Positions 7,963 through 46,907 of a stretch of 64,000 nt of DNA are shown here, one piece after another. This DNA comes from an uncultured Candidatus Saccharibacteria bacterium (lineage in GTDB: Bacteria > Patescibacteriota > Minisyncoccia > Phycocordibacterales > UBA12088), in NCBI GenBank assembly GCA_964567265.1, contig CAZMLK010000002.1:2996-66995 (forward strand), read 5' to 3'. Numbering within the stretch: the first letter of the stretch is position 1; every line of letters begins with the position of its first letter. Under the pieces are notes generated by a model. The model made no database searches and had not been told where the DNA came from. It saw nothing but the letters and a program-made list of their open reading frames with translations. The translations under genes and the position numbers were made by a program.

Positions 7963-8261
7963 ACAGTTTCGTTCACCTTTCTTTTCTTCCAACCTACCCG
8001 AACGGGCGGCCGGGCAATAAAAAAGGCCCTTATAAGGCACCTGATACTCCGCCCGATCCCGAGGGATGTGGGCAGGATGAGATATCGACCTCCGCAGGGC
8101 TTATTCCCTCATTTCTGAGAGGTGCCTGCTTCTTCGGTGCTTGGGTAAGACTGTACCATCCCGCCCGCCGGCTGGCAATATCCCCGCGCACCCGGCATTC
8201 ATTGACACCCCTCCCCCTTTTCGATTTACTCATGAGTAGGCACTTTTTCAGGAGACTCCCT
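7963..8261 (-). promoter_or_regulatory. long rplJ leader (candidate L10 autoregulatory leader)
   Basis: ~300 nt non-coding upstream of rplJ; by analogy to L10(L12)4-binding leaders; structure not verified. Confidence 0.3.
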
Positions 8262-8561
8262 ATGTCCCTGGTACTTGCACCATCACCACCCGTGAAGACA
8301 CCGGCCCTGGAACTCCAACTGCGCGGCTACCGCCTCGCGACCGCCGAAATTACGTATCATCTTCCCGACCATCCATCCCTGCTCCAGATCCTAATCTGGC
8401 AACACTACGATTTGGCTCCCGAGTTCCCGGAGCTCCACAAGTTCCTCGATTTCTGGGTACAAAATATCGAAGGCAAGCTTCACAGTGTATTCGTCGGGCG
8501 GAGGAAACTCCTCGGGCCCGTCCAGCATACGCACGCCGCCGGAATGTGGCTGTTGCATTGA
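8262..8561 (+). CDS. Usg-like small protein (99 aa)
   Basis: GGAG 7 nt before ATG 8262; LRGYRLATAEITYHLPDHPSLLQILIWQHYDLAPEFPELHKFLDFW resembles Usg family as I recall it. Confidence 0.45.
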   Translation: MSLVLAPSPPVKTPALELQLRGYRLATAEITYHLPDHPSLLQILIWQHYDLAPEFPELHKFLDFWVQNIEGKLHSVFVGRRKLLGPVQHTHAAGMWLLH

Positions 8562-8707
8562 ACTCCACCGAATACCGAAGGGCCGCTCGCATCCGCGAGC
8601 GGCCCTTTCTCATTTCCCAGATACCAGGATTCCCACGCCGCACGCCCCATCCGCCATGCGTGGGGCGTGAGGTGTGGGCACCTCCTCTTCGAGAGATGCC
8701 CGAACGC

Positions 8708-9247
8708 CTACACTCTGAGCGCGTAAATCTCAGTCTCGATCGCGCCGCAATTCTTGAACACCGATACGACATCCACATCCTTCGGTGCATTCGCGGCAAC
8801 AAGGATGTTACCCGCCTGCACGCGGTCGACATATTCCTGCGCCTGCTCCTTGCCGACGCCCATGCTCGCGAGCGCCCCCAGGACGCCGCCCGCTGCTGCT
8901 CCTGTGAGCGCTCCGGCTGCCGTCGCGCCGACGGCCCCAGTGAGCCCGAGCGCGGTCGCCAAAGGGCCGGCCACGAAGAGCGGGCCAAGTACCGGGAAGA
9001 CTCCAGCAACTGCCGCGATTCCTGCGAGCGCGCCAAGCGCGCCGCCGATGCTGGCACCGGTCACCGCGCCCTCAGCCGGAGTACTCGTGGTCACGTCCAT
9101 CGAGTCTACTTCCTTCACTTCGCCTTCGGTATTCCGATATATGAACGAGAGATCCTCATCGGGGATATTGAGCTCGTTGTGCACATGATTGAGCGCCTTC
9201 TCGGCATCCGCCCGCGACGCGAAAATTCCAATAGTGATTTGTTTCAT
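8708..9247 (-). CDS. YflT-like general stress protein with internal glycine-zipper
   Basis: MKQITIGIFASRADAEKAL... N-terminal YflT-like module, central GxxxG/AxxxA zipper, C-terminal repeat ...YVDRVQAGNILVAANAP. Confidence 0.6.
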   Translation of the reverse strand: MKQITIGIFASRADAEKALNHVHNELNIPDEDLSFIYRNTEGEVKEVDSMDVTTSTPAEGAVTGASIGGALGALAGIAAVAGVFPVLGPLFVAGPLATALGLTGAVGATAAGALTGAAAGGVLGALASMGVGKEQAQEYVDRVQAGNILVAANAPKDVDVVSVFKNCGAIETEIYALRV

Positions 9248-9329
9248 GGCGGTTGTGTGATTGGGTAATCCAGAAATCGTCCGACATTCTCAATCCTAAA
9301 AGAACGGGCGTGAAGCAATCATTAAGCGG

Positions 9330-9785
9330 CTATCCTTTCGGCGGCGTGGTGGATGCATTCGAGTCGGTAGTGGTCGCCCACAAGAGGTTGTAGACGGACG
9401 TCGCCCCGACTTCGGTAAGGCTGACCTGTCCTGCCAGCATGCCGTCCTGCCCGTACCCTTTGGCGATGAGACCGGTCATGAGGAGCGGCGTTTCCGGGAT
9501 CGGGAAGATCCAGATTTCAACGCCGGCAGCATTGGTCGCCTGATACTTCGCCTCGCCGAGGAGCTTGAATGCATCCTCAGTCACTTCGGTTCCCGTGGGC
9601 ACGCCCCAGATCTCCACCTTGGTGAGCCCCTTCCCTTCGACGACGATGTTCGGCCGCTCCACCGATATGCTCGCGATCTCCGGCTCGACCGCGGACACCT
9701 TCGTGCCTGAGGAGAGCCAGAAGAATACGCCTCCAATGAACAAGAAGAAGACGATGAGTCCGACGATGAGTCCGCGTGTTTCCAT
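9330..9785 (-). CDS. hypothetical membrane-anchored protein
   Basis: N-terminal TM helix LIVGLIVFFLFIGGVFFWL then soluble domain; start set at METRGL. Confidence 0.5.
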   Translation of the reverse strand: METRGLIVGLIVFFLFIGGVFFWLSSGTKVSAVEPEIASISVERPNIVVEGKGLTKVEIWGVPTGTEVTEDAFKLLGEAKYQATNAAGVEIWIFPIPETPLLMTGLIAKGYGQDGMLAGQVSLTEVGATSVYNLLWATTTDSNASTTPPKG

Positions 9786-9988
9786 ATCTTTAATAGGGAT
9801 GATGGCCCTCCCGGGCATGGATTCGAGTAACAACGCCTATCAAAGCACAGGAGATATAAAGGAAAGATGAAGATGTATTTTTCTAGGGCCGAGATAGGCC
9901 GTGCAACAGGTACGGAATATTGACAATAAGAACAGGTCGTGGCAATATCTTTGGCGACATCGCCGTTCTTTAAAAGCAACCACACGAG

Positions 9989-10402
9989 GTGCCAGAAATG
10001 CCCATCATCCTCCGAATGGAAGACCTGCTGCGCGAATATGATCGTGCAAATAGACAACCGCTCAACATCGACGGCGAGGACCCACCATTCTTCTCTGCGG
10101 CAGAGGACCCGGACCCGATCACTCCTGAGCAAACCAGGCTGCTGGCGGCGCGGATCCAAGCAGCCAAGATACGGTTCCGCTCCCGCCTTCCCAAATTCAA
10201 CGACCAGGATCTCTGGCGCGATGAACCCGAGGTCGAAGACAGCCCGGACGGAGTCGGAGCCTATGTCCGCATCCTCCGCCGGAGATCCAATGCGCACCAG
10301 ACCTGGCGTCGCGAGAGCCTTGCGCTCATCGCAGCATTCACACAACGCTGGAAGTCCCTCCTCGGTCAGATGACCGAAAACGCCTCCGACGAGGAGGAGT
10401 AG
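9989..10402 (+). CDS. hypothetical protein (137 aa)
   Basis: ORF with host-like GC, followed by terminator 10456-10490. Confidence 0.5.
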   Translation: MPEMPIILRMEDLLREYDRANRQPLNIDGEDPPFFSAAEDPDPITPEQTRLLAARIQAAKIRFRSRLPKFNDQDLWRDEPEVEDSPDGVGAYVRILRRRSNAHQTWRRESLALIAAFTQRWKSLLGQMTENASDEEE

Positions 10403-10455
10403 CATCTCTTCCTCCACCTCTTTCCGGTGCTGACAGCTTCCGCCACGAACTCAAT

Positions 10456-10490
10456 CCCCCGCAAGCCAAGCTTGCGGGGGATTTTTCTTT
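10456..10490. terminator. bidirectional terminator cccccgcaag-ccaag-cttgcggggg + T-run
   Basis: perfect 10-bp stem between convergent genes; marks right edge of low-GC island. Confidence 0.65.
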
Positions 10491-10512
10491 TAATTTTCTC
10501 CTCGGAATGAGC

Positions 10513-13416
10513 TCAATCAAACAATTTATCGTGCTCTATATCGTCAGACCAGTAGTTGTACCTTTCTCCCAAGAACTTCTTCAGGCCTTCTTTGTGCGGG
10601 GTGCCGTTTTTTATATCAAGATCTAGATGCCTCAGGGTGGATGGCATTGTCATGTAGAGATGAAGCTCGATGTCTTTCTTTGAGAATTCTGAGAGAGGGA
10701 CTGGCAACGAACTCTCGTCTTCTTGGCCGTTGAGTTGTTCAGTCATCGAACGCTTCATCGCCTCCTCAGTTCGTGCACCGCTGTTTTGCATTCGATAGTT
10801 CATCGCTATCGAACCTATCGCCATCAAAATATGCCAGTCTTTCCAACCAGCAGCACGAAGTTCGGCAACCGTTTTTTTGAACTCCGCAGTTTGATTTAGC
10901 TTAGGAAGTGTAAGTCCTACCACTCTCAATGAGCGTTCGTAGCGATTCTTGATACCCTTATCACTTCTCTCTTTGCTATAAGCGGGAACCAGATCACTTC
11001 TCCATGCCAATTCAGTATGTACCCGCTTTGTTAGGTCTAGCTTGAACTCTGGCTTAGGTAGCTTGGTTGCTTCATCAAAGAGTTCTCCTGACGTCAGGTC
11101 TCGATACATTGTCTCGTAGGAGCTCACCGTAAAGGTCTTCGTTGTGAGACCATCCTGTGCCGCCGCTTTCACCTTCTCTAGAACCTTCTCGTTTGGCAGC
11201 AGAGAGATTTCAGCAAGTATCGCAACAGCTATACCAAAGATCTCCATATTGAAATCGCCAACCTCCTCCAGCCCCTTGGGAACTGCAGTTCGTAGACTCA
11301 CTTTCCACCTGTACTCCTCATTGCTGTGCTGCTGCTCTATGTGGAATTTCTCCCTGTCTTCAAGCTCTACTGTGATGTGCGCATCAACTGGTAGTAGATA
11401 AAGCTCTTCACGAGCCAAATCTGCAAGCACAATTTGCAGAACTGCAACGAAGTGTTCTACCTTTGAAGTTTCGAGGAAGCCGTTCTTCCAATTCACATGC
11501 CAATTGATTCCAAGCTGTTGCCACTCAGCAGTTCTTTCCTCTCCCGCATCAGCGAATGGATTCCCAGTAAGGTTTTCTTCAAGAATTTCAATGGTTTCAG
11601 GTAGTGGTCGCTTTTCCCAAATTTCTTCAGCCATCTGAATAACCTCGTCAGTCCAGTCAGGGATTCCCCAAGAAGCAACTCGTTCTTTTACAAAGCCAGT
11701 GAGATCTGGAGAAACCACTTTAGATAAACCAGCGATGTTGCCCGTATAGAAGAGAATCTTCTGGAACATTTTCTGAGTGGTTTTGTCCTCATCCATATCT
11801 GGCGAGAAGGTACCCATGCCACGAAGTACCATTTCTGCTCGCTCTAGGAAGCTTGCCCAATTACCCTGCTCATACTCTGCTGAGGCAACTTGTGCCAGAC
11901 CTCTTGGAAAGTAGGCTTTGGTTTCTTCATCAAGACCTCTTGCAGCCATATAGGCTACGGCCATGCCGTAATATTTCGAAGCGTATGTCAGGCCAAGCTC
12001 TGAATACCATTCAGTAAGCAAGAGCATGGCAATGAGGGATCCGTTGATAGTTTCGTTTGCGAACCAGTGCTCCTTCGCTTTATGCAGTTCTTTTATCGCC
12101 TTGATGATTTGTTTTTTCTTATAGAATTCAAGGGAGCGATCACGGCTTTTCTCCGCGGCTGCAAATCCACCCATGCGCTTACTAAGCAAGTCATCGGTAC
12201 GCTTGGTGAGCTCATCGAACTGAGGATGATCGCCAATGAAAGGCACCAGCGCAGTCAAGATGTTTGAGAATCTTTCAAGCGGAAAGGTGGGAGTGCGCTC
12301 AATAAGTTCAGTTAGCTTCAACCACCACCCAATACCTTCATCCAAAGTGTCTGCGTATGGGTTATTGATTGTGAGTTGGCCTTTTGTTTCGTAGAGAATC
12401 GCTTGGATAGCTACATTCTTTTCTGTTTTTAGCCTCTCATCTACACACGACTCTATTCGACTACGCCATTCTGTGAGCTCTTCCTGAGTGAACTCAGCAA
12501 CTCCAAACCTTGCGCCTGCTTCTGCATAATTCAGAACTACCAGCGCGTCTTCAACTTCTATCGGACTCGTGAAGTCGCCATGAGAGAAATATTTACGGAC
12601 GAAATCCTCTTTGCCGCTAAGTGTGCGAGTTCCGCGCATGCGTACTGCAATAGCCTCGTATGCTGCTTTGCGTTTCAAAGGGATATCTCCTTCGATTTCA
12701 GAATAAGCTTCGAGCTTTTCAACCCAAAAAAGGAGGTCGTGTTTGAGGAGCTCCCTAAATAGCGCGCCGCGCGCCACCCACTTCAGATCATCAAACTCAG
12801 AGAAGTTTTGGTGATCGGGGAGGTAATCTTTCCACTTGGCCTTTAGCTTCTCGTATTCTGCGTCCTCGATAGGCGGGAATATTTTGCTAGAGACATTCAG
12901 ATATTTCTCCGCTATCCAAAATAATTCCTTCTCTGCCAACTGCTCTGATAAGCCTTCACCGTCAATGATGTCTAGGGAAATTTTGTAAATATCATATGCC
13001 CACTTCTTTATCTTATTTCTTTCAGAGACTGGGAGGTCATTGGAAGTAAGGTAATACGCTCCATCTACGGGGGTACCCTGTTCAACAATCTTCTTTACAT
13101 CTGCTTTTATCTTGGAAGGAAGTCCGTCCTTCTTGGTGGTGCAACCGAAGGCGAGTGTTTTCGAAGAGACTGACCCTGCATAAAAAGAAGTATCGCTGCT
13201 GCCGCTATCCTTCAAGAAAACCTTAAAAGTCTCGAAATCTCTTCCTTGATCTCCACCTGCAGCCACTGGCCCTGTTGCGGGCAAAACATTTACCCCTATC
13301 CGCTGGCGTGAAAAGTGCCTACAAATCTCTTCGAAAGTGAAGTGACCGTTCTGGCTAGGAAGTTCAGATAGAAGGAATTTTATGTATTTCTTTACATCCT
13401 CGTAGGATTGCGCCAT
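10513..13416 (-). CDS. large (967 aa) hypothetical protein on a low-GC island; N-terminal restriction-endonuclease (Mrr)-like motif; candidate defence/nuclease protein
   Basis: long ORF with ~45% GC versus ~60% flanks; N-terminus HFTFEEICRHF...AAGGDQGRDFETFK resembles Mrr_cat FE..l/sGDgGiD core; remainder helical with no P-loop; bounded by terminators. Confidence 0.75.
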   Translation of the reverse strand: MAQSYEDVKKYIKFLLSELPSQNGHFTFEEICRHFSRQRIGVNVLPATGPVAAGGDQGRDFETFKVFLKDSGSSDTSFYAGSVSSKTLAFGCTTKKDGLPSKIKADVKKIVEQGTPVDGAYYLTSNDLPVSERNKIKKWAYDIYKISLDIIDGEGLSEQLAEKELFWIAEKYLNVSSKIFPPIEDAEYEKLKAKWKDYLPDHQNFSEFDDLKWVARGALFRELLKHDLLFWVEKLEAYSEIEGDIPLKRKAAYEAIAVRMRGTRTLSGKEDFVRKYFSHGDFTSPIEVEDALVVLNYAEAGARFGVAEFTQEELTEWRSRIESCVDERLKTEKNVAIQAILYETKGQLTINNPYADTLDEGIGWWLKLTELIERTPTFPLERFSNILTALVPFIGDHPQFDELTKRTDDLLSKRMGGFAAAEKSRDRSLEFYKKKQIIKAIKELHKAKEHWFANETINGSLIAMLLLTEWYSELGLTYASKYYGMAVAYMAARGLDEETKAYFPRGLAQVASAEYEQGNWASFLERAEMVLRGMGTFSPDMDEDKTTQKMFQKILFYTGNIAGLSKVVSPDLTGFVKERVASWGIPDWTDEVIQMAEEIWEKRPLPETIEILEENLTGNPFADAGEERTAEWQQLGINWHVNWKNGFLETSKVEHFVAVLQIVLADLAREELYLLPVDAHITVELEDREKFHIEQQHSNEEYRWKVSLRTAVPKGLEEVGDFNMEIFGIAVAILAEISLLPNEKVLEKVKAAAQDGLTTKTFTVSSYETMYRDLTSGELFDEATKLPKPEFKLDLTKRVHTELAWRSDLVPAYSKERSDKGIKNRYERSLRVVGLTLPKLNQTAEFKKTVAELRAAGWKDWHILMAIGSIAMNYRMQNSGARTEEAMKRSMTEQLNGQEDESSLPVPLSEFSKKDIELHLYMTMPSTLRHLDLDIKNGTPHKEGLKKFLGERYNYWSDDIEHDKLFD

Positions 13417-13662
13417 AAATATTTTCTTCTTCTAAGAAGGCTGCTCGGAGTCCGAATCTATCTCAAACTGGCTGAGCAAATTTGAATCGAACAGCCCTGA
13501 TGCCCTAGTATTATGGACCTCAATAATCAGTCGGCAAGATTCCCATACTCGCAAAAACGTTGCGCCTCGTTAGCCACAGAAATAGCGGCAAGGCCATTGT
13601 CATCCTTTTTTTCAGAGTTAGAATGTTCGTGCGATCATCGGGTCGCTAAAGTTGGGAAACTT

Positions 13663-13697
13663 TAAGAAAAAGACTCGCCCTGCGAGTCTTTTTCTTT
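13663..13697 (-). terminator. intrinsic terminator after DUF1360 gene (agactcgc-cct-gcgagtct with flanking A/T runs)
   Basis: hairpin flanked by aaaaa/ttttt, 20 nt downstream of minus-strand stop at 13716. Confidence 0.65.
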
Positions 13698-13715
13698 CCT
13701 ATCTTTAGGCCTTCC

Positions 13716-14210
13716 CTACTTATCCTCCACCTGCATTTTGAGGAGTTCGGCTTTCCAGCCGATGAGGTTCGCGGCGACCTGGATGAATGAGGCAACACCC
13801 GCGATCGCAAGGAAGAGAATCGGGAACCATGCGTACGGCGTCAGGAAGTAGAAGAAGGAGACGAAGAGCGCGAACCACATGCCGATGCACCACGGGCAAG
13901 AGAGGAGGTCGGCTATCGTGCGGCGCGGGCCGCCGAAAGGCTTCTGACGGAGCACGATGCGCTCGCCGTCGTCGCCCATGCGGAGAGTCTTGTCGAGGAA
14001 GAGGTCGCGGACGTGCTGCATGATCTTGTCATACACGAAGAGGCGCGTGAGGCGGAAGGTCGCGAGCGCGAGGAGCGCGAAGTCGTAGAGCGGGATGTAC
14101 CGCGGGACGATGCCGGCGACGACATGCAGGATGACGAGCGCGTTCACGAACAGCATCAGGAAGAGGAGGCCGAAGGTGAGGTTCCAGAAATCTTGGTCGT
14201 CTTGCAACAT
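13716..14210 (-). CDS. DUF1360-family membrane protein
   Basis: CPWCIGMW motif and TM helices typical of DUF1360. Confidence 0.7.
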   Translation of the reverse strand: MLQDDQDFWNLTFGLLFLMLFVNALVILHVVAGIVPRYIPLYDFALLALATFRLTRLFVYDKIMQHVRDLFLDKTLRMGDDGERIVLRQKPFGGPRRTIADLLSCPWCIGMWFALFVSFFYFLTPYAWFPILFLAIAGVASFIQVAANLIGWKAELLKMQVEDK

Positions 14211-19612: not shown

Positions 19613-20383
19613 TTACACGGCACGCATGTATGTACTCCACCGTCGTTCCCCTTCCCTTTTAAGGACACCCCCTTCGACGAGCGAAGCGAGCTCGCGCTGG
19701 ATAGTCTTCTCACTGCAGTCCTTTACCACGTCCGATATGTCCTTGATCGTGACCCGTTGTTTCTTATCTATCAAATCCAATATCACAGTCTTCCTTTCCG
19801 AGTGTCGCACTTCAGGGACATTGGAAGAATCTGCGGTCTTTTCAAGGACAGGAGTGCTGGTTTTCATATTAAAAGACATGGGATGTCTTTTAACTGCCCT
19901 TTGCTGCGGAGCACGGTTTTGATCGAGTCCTCGCTTCCATGCCTCAGATTTCTTTTCCAAGATATCGAGATCCTCCACACTGAAGAATTCCGGATCCTCG
20001 AGGAGAGTCGCCCCGAGAAGATGCGCGCGGCGCTCGCGGAGGAAGGAAAGGAGTCCGTAACATTCGACTTCCATCACCTCGGCATTGTTCCTTGAGATCT
20101 TCCGGGCCGATGCGGCAAGCGTAAGGAGGGACGACAGGCGGATCAGGCCGAATTCGAAGCGCCCTTCTTCCCCGTCCAGAAAGTAGTGGAGTGCGTCTTC
20201 GGAGAGCCGGAGCGCTGACTCTTCGAGTCGTGCACGGAAAGGGTCAGTATGTCCGATATACGAGCAGAGCAGGATTGTCGCCTCGGCGATCTTTTCTGTC
20301 TTTTTGTAGACATACATAAAGGACAAATTTCCCTTAGCGAAGAGAAAGAAGGCTTTATCCTTATTTATTTTATCCTCTCCCAT
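19613..20383 (-). CDS. hypothetical regulator with C-terminal winged HTH (DeoR-like)
   Basis: C-terminus VTIKDISDVVKDCSEKTIQRELASLVEGGVLKR; alternative start MYVYKK at 20317. Confidence 0.6.
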   Translation of the reverse strand: MGEDKINKDKAFFLFAKGNLSFMYVYKKTEKIAEATILLCSYIGHTDPFRARLEESALRLSEDALHYFLDGEEGRFEFGLIRLSSLLTLAASARKISRNNAEVMEVECYGLLSFLRERRAHLLGATLLEDPEFFSVEDLDILEKKSEAWKRGLDQNRAPQQRAVKRHPMSFNMKTSTPVLEKTADSSNVPEVRHSERKTVILDLIDKKQRVTIKDISDVVKDCSEKTIQRELASLVEGGVLKREGERRWSTYMRAV

Positions 20384-45536: not shown

Positions 45537-46214
45537 TTATTCGATAACGAAAATCTTGTCGGTACCGTAGTACTCCGGCCAATGCTGATTGTAATGCGCG
45601 AACATGCGCTCGAGCCTTGATTGCGGCAGCTCGGCGACGCCGACCGCCTGCATGAGGCTCCGGATCTCGCCGCGGATCTTATCACCCTCGCTCATGTCGT
45701 CCGCCATCCGCTCGAATTCGGCGAGGTAGCCGTACCCAGCGTTCTTGTCGAGGCAGACCTTCGTCCCCTGGCAGAGATACTCCTCGCGTTCGCGCGACCA
45801 CTTCGCCTGATAGGAAAAGCCTGCGGCGAGAATCGCCTGATCGAGCTCGTCGAGCGTGTGGCCCGGGACTTCTTCCTCGAACTCAAGGCGTGAGACGCCG
45901 TTCGCGCTCGTGTGCGCATCCACGGACGCTTTCACGACGAGGAGGATCTTGCCGTCGATCTCGCGGGTGCGGATCGAAAAATTGCTCCCGGTTTCAAGGA
46001 TTGTGTGGAGCGCCTGCTGCTGTTCGACATCCGAGAAGAGCGGCGAGAGCTTTTGTTCCAGCTCTTTCACCTTATCACCTGCAAAATAATGATTTAGTTG
46101 TTTATTCTTGCATATAAGTGTCGTATTCGCATCAACACGTTTCAAAGAAATGCGAAGATTTTCTGCATTCTCAGCACTTCCTAACAGGGACTTGATTTCA
46201 ATCTCATACTGCAT
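45537..46214 (-). CDS. CYTH-domain protein (CyaB/thiamine-triphosphatase-like)
   Basis: starts MQYEIEIKSLL (EIEIK CYTH opening); acidic patches; first ~45 codons lie in the low-GC block. Confidence 0.6.
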   Translation of the reverse strand: MQYEIEIKSLLGSAENAENLRISLKRVDANTTLICKNKQLNHYFAGDKVKELEQKLSPLFSDVEQQQALHTILETGSNFSIRTREIDGKILLVVKASVDAHTSANGVSRLEFEEEVPGHTLDELDQAILAAGFSYQAKWSREREEYLCQGTKVCLDKNAGYGYLAEFERMADDMSEGDKIRGEIRSLMQAVGVAELPQSRLERMFAHYNQHWPEYYGTDKIFVIE

Positions 46215-46343
46215 AAAAACTGCCTTAAGTTATCCCTACTGCATATAACAATGATTCATTGTACTATTAGTTTATTAAAGTAGATTCATTGACGAAATGC
46301 GCTATTGATTGTTTTCTACTCAATTACCCTTCCCTATACTGAA

Positions 46344-46907
46344 ATGACTGAGAAAAAGGCGAGAATAAGCGCAATTGCTGCCATAGGAAAAGACACCCGG
46401 GCTATTTGTGAAGATGGCCACTTGATGTGGCATATTCCCGAAGACATGAAACGTTTACGTAGCCTTACACTTGGGCACGTACTTGTTATGGGGCGAAAGA
46501 CTTACGACTCTATTGGTCACCCACTTAAAGGACGGGTAAATATCATTGTTACAAGAAACAATGATTATTTGCCCAAAATTCCTGCCGATTTTATAAATGA
46601 AACAGTGGTAGTTTGTCATTCAATCGAGGGCGCCTTAGAGAAAGCTGAAGAATTGGAGCAACCAAAAGAAGCAGGCAAAGAGCGTGAAATTTTTATATTT
46701 GGTGGTGGCGAAATTTATGCAGCAGCATTGGCTCAGACAGAGAGGTTATATTTAACGTTGGTAGAAGATGCCAAAAAAGGAACCGCCTGTTTCCCTGACT
46801 ACGGCGCAGAGTTTACAAAAGTCATTGAAGAAAGCGAAAGGCAATTTTGGGAAAGCGGAAATGGACCGATTCCCTATCACTGGATTGATCTAGAGCGGGA
46901 GAAATAG
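46344..46907 (+). CDS. folA: dihydrofolate reductase on a low-GC (~42%) segment
   Basis: ISAIAAIGKD..., VLVMGRKTYDSIG, IFIFGGGEIY DHFR motifs; start at MTEKKA. Confidence 0.85.
   Translation: MTEKKARISAIAAIGKDTRAICEDGHLMWHIPEDMKRLRSLTLGHVLVMGRKTYDSIGHPLKGRVNIIVTRNNDYLPKIPADFINETVVVCHSIEGALEKAEELEQPKEAGKEREIFIFGGGEIYAAALAQTERLYLTLVEDAKKGTACFPDYGAEFTKVIEESERQFWESGNGPIPYHWIDLEREK

Follow-up and report, generated by a model that had tools for sequence, protein, structure and literature searches.

A horizontally acquired single-gene cassette in a candidate-phyla-radiation-type bacterium encodes a putative NTPase-less, nuclease-headed defence protein

The 64,000-nucleotide stretch analyzed here (the window) belongs to contig CAZMLK010000002.1 of an uncultured Candidatus Saccharibacteria bacterium (assembly GCA_964567265.1). 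Inside the spacer between its DUF1360 and rplJ genes lies a low-GC inserted block (10491-13663, no strand) that holds one long open reading frame (ORF). This ORF is on the minus strand (10513-13416), begins with ATG and encodes a 967-aa protein composed of a nuclease-like head and a body of the tetratricopeptide repeat (TPR) type. Coordinates, strand and length are exactly those given in a first-pass annotation made from the DNA letters. That annotation also reported a GC contrast of about 45% versus 60%; the drop is real (0.460 in the block versus 0.565 in the rest of the window), the contrast having been put slightly too high. In 150-bp windows, GC drops from ~0.62 to ~0.45 over positions 10400-10500 and rises again over 13650-13850. 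The ORF itself has a GC of 0.461, compared with a mean of 0.571 (standard deviation 0.033) for the 50 other ORFs of the window, i.e. a z value of -3.3, and ranks second lowest among the 51. Its GC at third codon positions (GC3) is also deviant, at 0.474 versus 0.697 for the other ORFs.

The adjacent DUF1360 protein was used to scan metagenomes, which gave 80 related loci (L094-L173) with at most 57% identity. The gene order DUF1360-rplJ-rplL is kept in 52 of them, often with the p1202 and TPR genes upstream. The DUF1360-to-rplJ gap measures 201-4767 bp in these syntenic loci (median 526 bp; 201-1394 bp in 51 of the 52) and 5676 bp in the window. None of the 80 loci, including the 52 syntenic ones with their short spacers, encodes a relative of the 967-aa protein. 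An identical protein is on record only in a second assembly of the same locus. The closest homolog, P0001, is 91% identical at the amino acid level and 88% at the nucleotide level, with a dN/dS of 0.075, and comes from a genome of 39% GC. It sits there (locus L001) in an unrelated mobile element, in the company of a serine recombinase, a terminase-like gene, an N6/N4 methyltransferase, a T4 endonuclease-IV-like gene and a GIY-YIG gene. BLASTN comparison of the window with that genome showed similarity over the ORF, ~15 bp on its 5' side and 7 bp on its 3' side, and nothing further; the 5' intergenic region (13417-13663) is not common to the two copies. Across seven loci the GC of the gene is 0.37-0.52 and that of the host loci 0.39-0.67. 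In this bacterium of the candidate phyla radiation (CPR) type, the DUF1360-rplJ spacer has received a single-gene cassette by horizontal transfer, and the gene is mobile and selectively maintained. The lateral acquisition proposed in the first-pass annotation is thus borne out by the deviant GC and GC3, by the empty site in 52 syntenic relatives and by an 88%-identical copy elsewhere whose similarity is limited to the ORF.

Could the gene nonetheless belong to the normal housekeeping or stress repertoire of the lineage, its low GC being incidental? The chromosomal flanks (rplJ/rplL, glmS and DUF1360 in the window) would suit this, as would a search of the window for insertion signatures, which detected neither an integrase nor a nearby tRNA, and no direct repeats flanking the site. 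However, none of the 80 related loci has the gene, no more than ~0.12% of species carry it and without conserved synteny, and a near-identical copy is found in an unrelated genome. A housekeeping function is already contradicted by these results and must be considered highly improbable. As for the spacer, one related locus (L153) carries 4.8 kb of unrelated cargo at this place, and the small ORFs p137, p167 and p179 of the window (spacer region 8040-13716) are likewise missing from all related loci. Because of this and of its variable length, the DUF1360-rplJ spacer may be an insertion hotspot in the lineage.

Two hairpins near the block, previously described as strong terminators bounding it, are real and perfect. 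The first (13664-13696, no strand) has 15-nt arms with A and T runs on both sides, as in a bidirectional terminator. Since it is located 20 bp past the stop codon of DUF1360, on the same strand as this gene, it is best read as the DUF1360 terminator, which would also insulate the island gene. The second (10453-10483, plus strand) is GC-rich, with 14-nt arms followed by a T-run on the plus strand, and lies between the convergent ORF 9989-10402 (plus strand), downstream of it, and the island ORF. Both read better as terminators of neighbouring genes than as island borders. The 5' intergenic region on the minus strand (13417-13663) has a GC of 0.44 and contains the promoter-like TTGCCG-16-CATAAT at 13510-13537. 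The hexamers of the earlier promoter prediction (TTGCCG with CATAAT/TAATAC) are indeed present there, but such sites occur at chance level, four being found versus 3.8 expected from shuffled sequence. Among the neighbours named in the first-pass annotation, DUF1360 was confirmed, and the 'YflT-like' ORF 8708-9247 has no Pfam match.

Two other regions of the window also have a lowered GC. A second islet (46305-46907, plus strand) contains the ORF with the lowest GC of the window (0.42). It encodes a dihydrofolate reductase (PF00186, E 1e-37) and is probably another laterally acquired gene; a CYTH-domain gene adjoins it (45537-46214, minus strand, as given with the islet). Between 18500 and 20500 the GC is 0.475-0.495, in a region that includes ORF 19613-20383 with a weak HTH_DeoR match.

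Neither the single protein sequence nor family profiles gave a match in Pfam, NCBIfam, PADLOC or the PDB sequences, and for the full 967-aa protein there was none in Pfam at E<=1. Database matches to LipL41, RBP2 and NDUFC2 were rejected as noise. The protein belongs to a family with over 368 full-length homologs, which are 960-1020 aa long and without exception labelled 'hypothetical'. With a profile of the head alone, 1312 clusters (50% identity) are collected, including 516 with E below 1e-30, and the best 150 matches of its search against a representative library are members of the same family throughout. The full-length AlphaFold2 model has a pLDDT of 86.9 and a pTM of 0.77, with low confidence only at residues 42-85. 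Four parts can be distinguished in it, all on the minus strand. Residues 1-175 (12892-13416) are predicted to form an N-terminal alpha/beta domain of the restriction-endonuclease-like, Mrr-type PD-(D/E)xK kind. Within it, the nearly invariant stretch N-v-L-P-A-T-G-P-V-x-x-G-G-D-Q-G-R-D-F-E at residues 43-62 (13231-13290; alignments A1, A2 and A4), with D56, D60 and E62, is the presumed active-site region. In this stretch, the second residue is I or V and the third L or I. Residues 185-615 (11572-12864) are modelled as an all-helical solenoid with TPR-like fold matches, presumably a sensor or a scaffold. Residues 620-740 (11197-11559) constitute a conserved alpha/beta domain, beta-beta-alpha-beta-beta-beta-alpha in the secondary structure of the model, with invariant D623, R628, W639, E654 and Q661. 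The C-terminal domain (residues 741-967, 10516-11196), helical from 741 to 955 in the model, is common to a Cap4-headed sister family described below. It ends with the conserved motif RYNYWxDDIEHxxPF (residues 952-967, 10516-10560), which is found in part in this sister family too.

Invariant residues are numerous and scattered through the body. A second nuclease core at residues 647-737 was considered as a possibility: the alpha-beta-beta-beta-alpha topology of the 620-740 domain fits, but the domain has no nuclease motif, i.e. no conserved acidic or lysine motif. A motif search found no Walker A or P-loop (G/AxxxxGK[ST]) in the 967-aa protein, as already noted at first reading, and in the AlphaFold2 model the head is followed by the repeats with no intervening alpha/beta NTPase fold. 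The body gave no specific structural match to the solved Avs sensors among the matches listed, and it is without specific structural precedent.

In the model, the head has the alpha-beta-beta-beta-alpha-beta restriction-endonuclease fold, and Mrr-type structures are its nearest neighbours. These are (PDB entry and listed value in brackets) AspBHI (4oc8, 10.3), the nuclease effector head of Avs4 (8dgf, 10.0), MspJI (4f0p, 9.8), AF1548 (1y88, 9.2), LlaBIII (4xqk, 9.1) and FokI (2fok, 8.7), with BspD6I, EcoT38I, PaqCI, Can2, NucC, Card1 and HamA ranked lower. The model thus shows an Mrr-type PD-(D/E)xK nuclease fold. Residues E29, D56, D60, E62, C92, K102 and D106 are invariant or nearly so in the family alignment, five of them (D56, D60, E62, K102 and D106) being invariant across more than 1000 clusters. 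D60 is placed at the start of strand beta-2 (residues 61-63) or just before it, and K102 and D106 are on the helix that follows beta-3. Residues 43-62, partly ordered only in a model of the domain alone, may be a mobile active-site loop.

A search of plasmids by tblastn found 13 records, five of them conjugative, and three Bacteroidota plasmids match residues ~183-966 only. The protein of Hymenobacter DG01 (1249 aa) aligns with the body over query residues 230-966 (24% identity, E 1e-60), and a Cap4 dsDNA endonuclease domain (PF14130, E 4.9e-8, above the gathering score) replaces the Mrr-type head. This sister family comprises at least 147 clusters of ~1080-1250 aa, mostly from Bacteroidota, many of which are annotated DUF4297 or Cap4-like. 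Judging from these alignments, the sister family combines this body with a Cap4 dsDNA-nuclease head. A third architecture is seen in Agrobacterium pAt2. Its 1067-aa protein (L093, 5986-9189) has only the head and first repeats in common with ours and differs in its C-terminal half of ~580 aa; its motif reads G-G-D-A-K-A-D-T-E, and D56, D60, E62, K102 and D106 are retained. The pAt2 gene adjoins genes for a SMEK-domain protein and a radical SAM protein. Effector-sensor immune proteins show this pattern, in which one body can bear either of two nuclease heads and one head can be joined to either of two bodies. Avs4 and Avs7 are such proteins, with an Mrr-type and a Cap4 head respectively (bioRxiv 10.64898/2026.01.04.697583). 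A literature search returned no Cap4 or DUF4297 head on a TPR body and no ATPase-less Mrr-like head.

With one genome per species, relatives were found in 231 of ~185,000 species (~0.12%). The bacterial hosts include CPR, Acidobacteriota, Chloroflexota, Proteobacteria, Bacteroidota, Actinomycetota, Verrucomicrobiota and Planctomycetota. The archaeal hosts are of four lineages: Methanosarcina/Methanosarcinales, Methanobacteriaceae, Bathyarchaeia and Hodarchaeota. The Methanosarcinales copies are 40% identical to the CPR query, compared with 28-35% for most bacterial copies, and this greater proximity indicates, at the level of protein identity, a transfer of the family between domains. No viral relative was detected in IMG/VR or in 50,697 phage genomes, which rules against a viral origin.

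The ORFs around 84 loci of the family were clustered, HsdM being counted within 10 kb. No partner gene is conserved across these loci and no neighbour family is present at more than 9 of the 84, in line with the single-gene character initially claimed for the island. The commonest neighbours are recombinases (two families, at 9 and 7 loci), HsdM (6), HsdR (4) and HsdS (3). The 127 directly adjacent ORFs matched 121 different Pfam families, each at most three times, and among these are PIN, Methylase_S, N6_Mtase, Phage_integrase, SLFN_AlbA_2, LmuB/DUF3732 and the YobI ATPase. Eleven neighbourhoods were annotated with Pfam, and nine of them, L001 and L003 included, contain defence or mobile-element genes, as a raw count. 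At L005 the order is hsdM-hsdS-[gene]-PIN ... hsdR, with PhdYeFM/PIN toxin-antitoxin modules. L006 has Mrr_cat and a 1454-aa STAND-like protein, L009 an integrase and a TraG-like gene, L174 ArdC, a C5-methylase and a McrBC-like AAA_5 with PDDEXK_7, and L175 integrases with Schlafen/AlbA_2. A relaxase, E1/E2-like genes, an integrase and Fic are present at L176, and a group II intron, IS66, integrases and Mrr_cat at L177. At L007 and in the window, only housekeeping genes are found. Members of the sister family adjoin HipA and AbiEi/AbiEii.

Other neighbours were observed at these loci. Three independent lineages (L005/L025, 1-4015; L072, 19560-22766; L075/L077/L082, 5937-9902) have an imuB/dnaE2-type error-prone polymerase cassette no more than 10 kb from the family gene, and in Caulobacteraceae it lies directly upstream of that gene. 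Giant ORFs of 1400-1520 aa with P-loop-like motifs adjoin the family gene at L018 (5396-9949), L079 (5589-9791) and L006 (5385-9749). They were rejected as a partner, those of L018 and L079 being unrelated to each other, and are probably separate STAND-like defence genes.

Such surroundings raise the question of whom the protein serves. It could work for the mobile elements that carry it, by exclusion of plasmids or integrative and conjugative elements, by addiction or in competition between elements, instead of defending the host against phages. The gene is often beside integrases, serine recombinases, relaxases and insertion sequence elements, and 13 plasmids carry relatives, as mentioned above. 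This seems improbable, as the copies in the window and at L007 stand alone among housekeeping genes with no element around. Moreover, mobile elements typically carry defence genes as well, and the mobile context therefore cannot separate the two readings. The main rival is that the protein is a type IV-like or other DNA-sensing restriction enzyme, in which the head would cut directly and the body would recognise a feature of DNA (a modified base, an end or a structure) and not a protein. Modification-dependent or Mrr-type restriction nucleases (AspBHI, MspJI and AF1548/Mrr) are the best structural neighbours, the gene is in or beside type I restriction-modification operons at 6 loci, and the high conservation of the body in both Bacteria and Archaea would be understandable if the trigger were as universal as DNA. 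However, neither Pfam nor fold comparison detects an SRA, a winged-helix or another DNA-binding domain, and TPR solenoids typically bind protein. The head is also swappable with Cap4, as in effector-sensor proteins. A DNA-sensing restriction enzyme is thus unlikely, while being the alternative to be taken most seriously.

We consider that the 967-aa protein is a stand-alone, modular, NTPase-less effector-plus-sensor defence protein, with a probability of about 0.6. Its role in defence and the nature of its trigger are what we infer. The defence effector of the first-pass annotation finds support in the defence and mobile-element neighbourhoods of the relatives, its anti-phage function being part of this inference. 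The nuclease head is fused to a body of ~780 aa comprising the TPR-like solenoid, the small alpha/beta domain and the helical tail. By analogy with Avs4, Avs7 and the NTPase-less Dsr1/Dsr2, this body would most likely keep the nuclease auto-inhibited. Binding of an invader-derived ligand to the body could then release or assemble the nuclease, and the assembled nuclease domains would cut DNA, so that the invader is stopped or the infected cell killed. Activation would parallel that of Avs4/Avs7 but without nucleotide-driven oligomerisation, as in Dsr1/Dsr2.

Several results weigh against this interpretation. In the neighbourhoods, many direct neighbours are ordinary metabolic genes, 2 of the 11 annotated loci (L007 and the window) are purely housekeeping, and the 9 of 11 is, as said, a raw count. 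The conservation of the body is unusually high for a fast-evolving sensor, and PADLOC reveals no sequence-level homology to any known defence protein. Concerning the head, none of 22 N-domains matches Mrr_cat (PF04471) at E<=10. Comparison of the A4 profile with 111 Mrr domains by hhalign gave a probability of 1.3% over only 16 columns, in the last strand and helix, and comparison with a 3-sequence Mrr template gave 0.2%, the test being weak owing to the low diversity of the template profile. The (D/E/Q)xK lysine is missing from strand beta-3 (residues 88-93), which reads A-F-A-C-T. Finally, residues 43-62 are the most conserved stretch of the family but the least confident of the full-length model (pLDDT 30-40). 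The Mrr-like head of the first-pass annotation is therefore supported at the level of fold, by its nearest structures AspBHI, Avs4, MspJI and AF1548, whereas the motif resemblance on which it was based has no statistical support.

The lack of the beta-3 lysine and of profile similarity to Mrr could mean that the head keeps the nuclease fold but is catalytically dead, serving to bind DNA or to oligomerise. In that case the protein would act non-nucleolytically, as a scaffold, as a regulator or through an unrecognised activity of its body, for which the many invariant body residues and the invariant C-terminal DDIEH motif would be an argument. We find this improbable as well. If the head had no chemistry to perform, the invariance of D56, D60, E62, K102 and D106 in over 1000 clusters would be difficult to account for, and a bona fide Cap4 nuclease takes the place of the head in the sister family. 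Judging from conservation only, the head may be catalytically competent, though the canonical lysine is missing.

If the defence role is confirmed, this would add a widespread, hitherto unannotated family, with more than 1,300 head clusters at 50% identity and hosts in 231 species of both prokaryotic domains. After Dsr1/Dsr2, it would also be a second independent case in which TPR-type sensing and an effector are linked with no STAND ATPase involved, and would raise the question of how activation proceeds when no nucleotide drives the oligomerisation. CPR bacteria and archaea, among which the family occurs, are groups with poorly known immune repertoires. Since its body is strongly conserved, the family is also a promising place to look for a viral trigger of broad conservation. 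With its atypical active site, it would widen the known variation of the PD-(D/E)xK superfamily. More speculatively, and with some doubt on our part, the family and its Cap4-headed sister might together represent an unrecognised class of NTPase-independent pattern-recognition nucleases in Bacteria, CPR and Archaea, including Asgard and methanogens. The conserved ~780-aa body would sense a universal feature of invaders or have a second activity, and the head would use a non-canonical PD-(D/E)xK site made of the G-G-D-Q-G-R-D-F-E loop and a lysine from the following helix.

How does the protein compare with known systems? That it could not be assigned to a named one at first reading agrees with the PADLOC search. 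Neither Lamassu LmuA, Upx nor other named single-protein nucleases were matched in PADLOC or in PDB sequences. The modification-dependent type IV enzymes Mrr, MspJI and AspBHI (Mrr_cat, PF04471) have QxK/ExK in beta-3 and a reader domain for modified DNA, both lacking in the family, which has no hidden Markov model (HMM) or profile-profile match to them; in place of their DNA-binding domain it has the ~780-aa TPR-type body. Upx is a single-protein defence enzyme with two PD-(D/E)xK nucleases, the canonical one C-terminal and the second N-terminal (PMC13099982, PMC13601566). Like the family, Upx consists of one nuclease protein whose middle region is regulatory, and its activation by a phage protein is a feature of Upx. 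The family gave no sequence match to PDB chains and no fold match to Upx among the matches listed. Avs proteins resemble the family in their N-terminal effector and C-terminal TPR-like sensor. However, Avs4 (Mrr-type nuclease head; PDB 8dgf) and Avs7 (Cap4 head) possess a STAND NTPase, of which the family has neither the Walker A motif nor the fold, and PADLOC Avs models did not match the 967-aa protein. An NTPase-less use of the TPR sensor has been documented for Dsr1 and a HEPN protein (bioRxiv 10.64898/2026.01.04.697583). The family has no HMM or fold link to this sensor, and its accessions are absent from the supplements of that study that were searched. PADLOC Dsr models did not match either, and no Dsr2 structure is among the fold matches listed. 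A kinship to Upx, to Dsr or to the Avs7 sensor was thus rejected, having no HMM, sequence or fold support. In its layout, the protein is like Dsr1/Dsr2, i.e. one polypeptide of ~1000 aa in which an enzymatic head is joined to a large body of alpha-helical repeats, with no NTPase. It differs from them by a nuclease head in place of SIR2, by the extra alpha/beta domain and by the conserved C-terminal motif. The architecture is therefore of a known kind, a single-protein effector with a repeat sensor, and the family itself is new to Pfam, NCBIfam, PADLOC and the literature searched.

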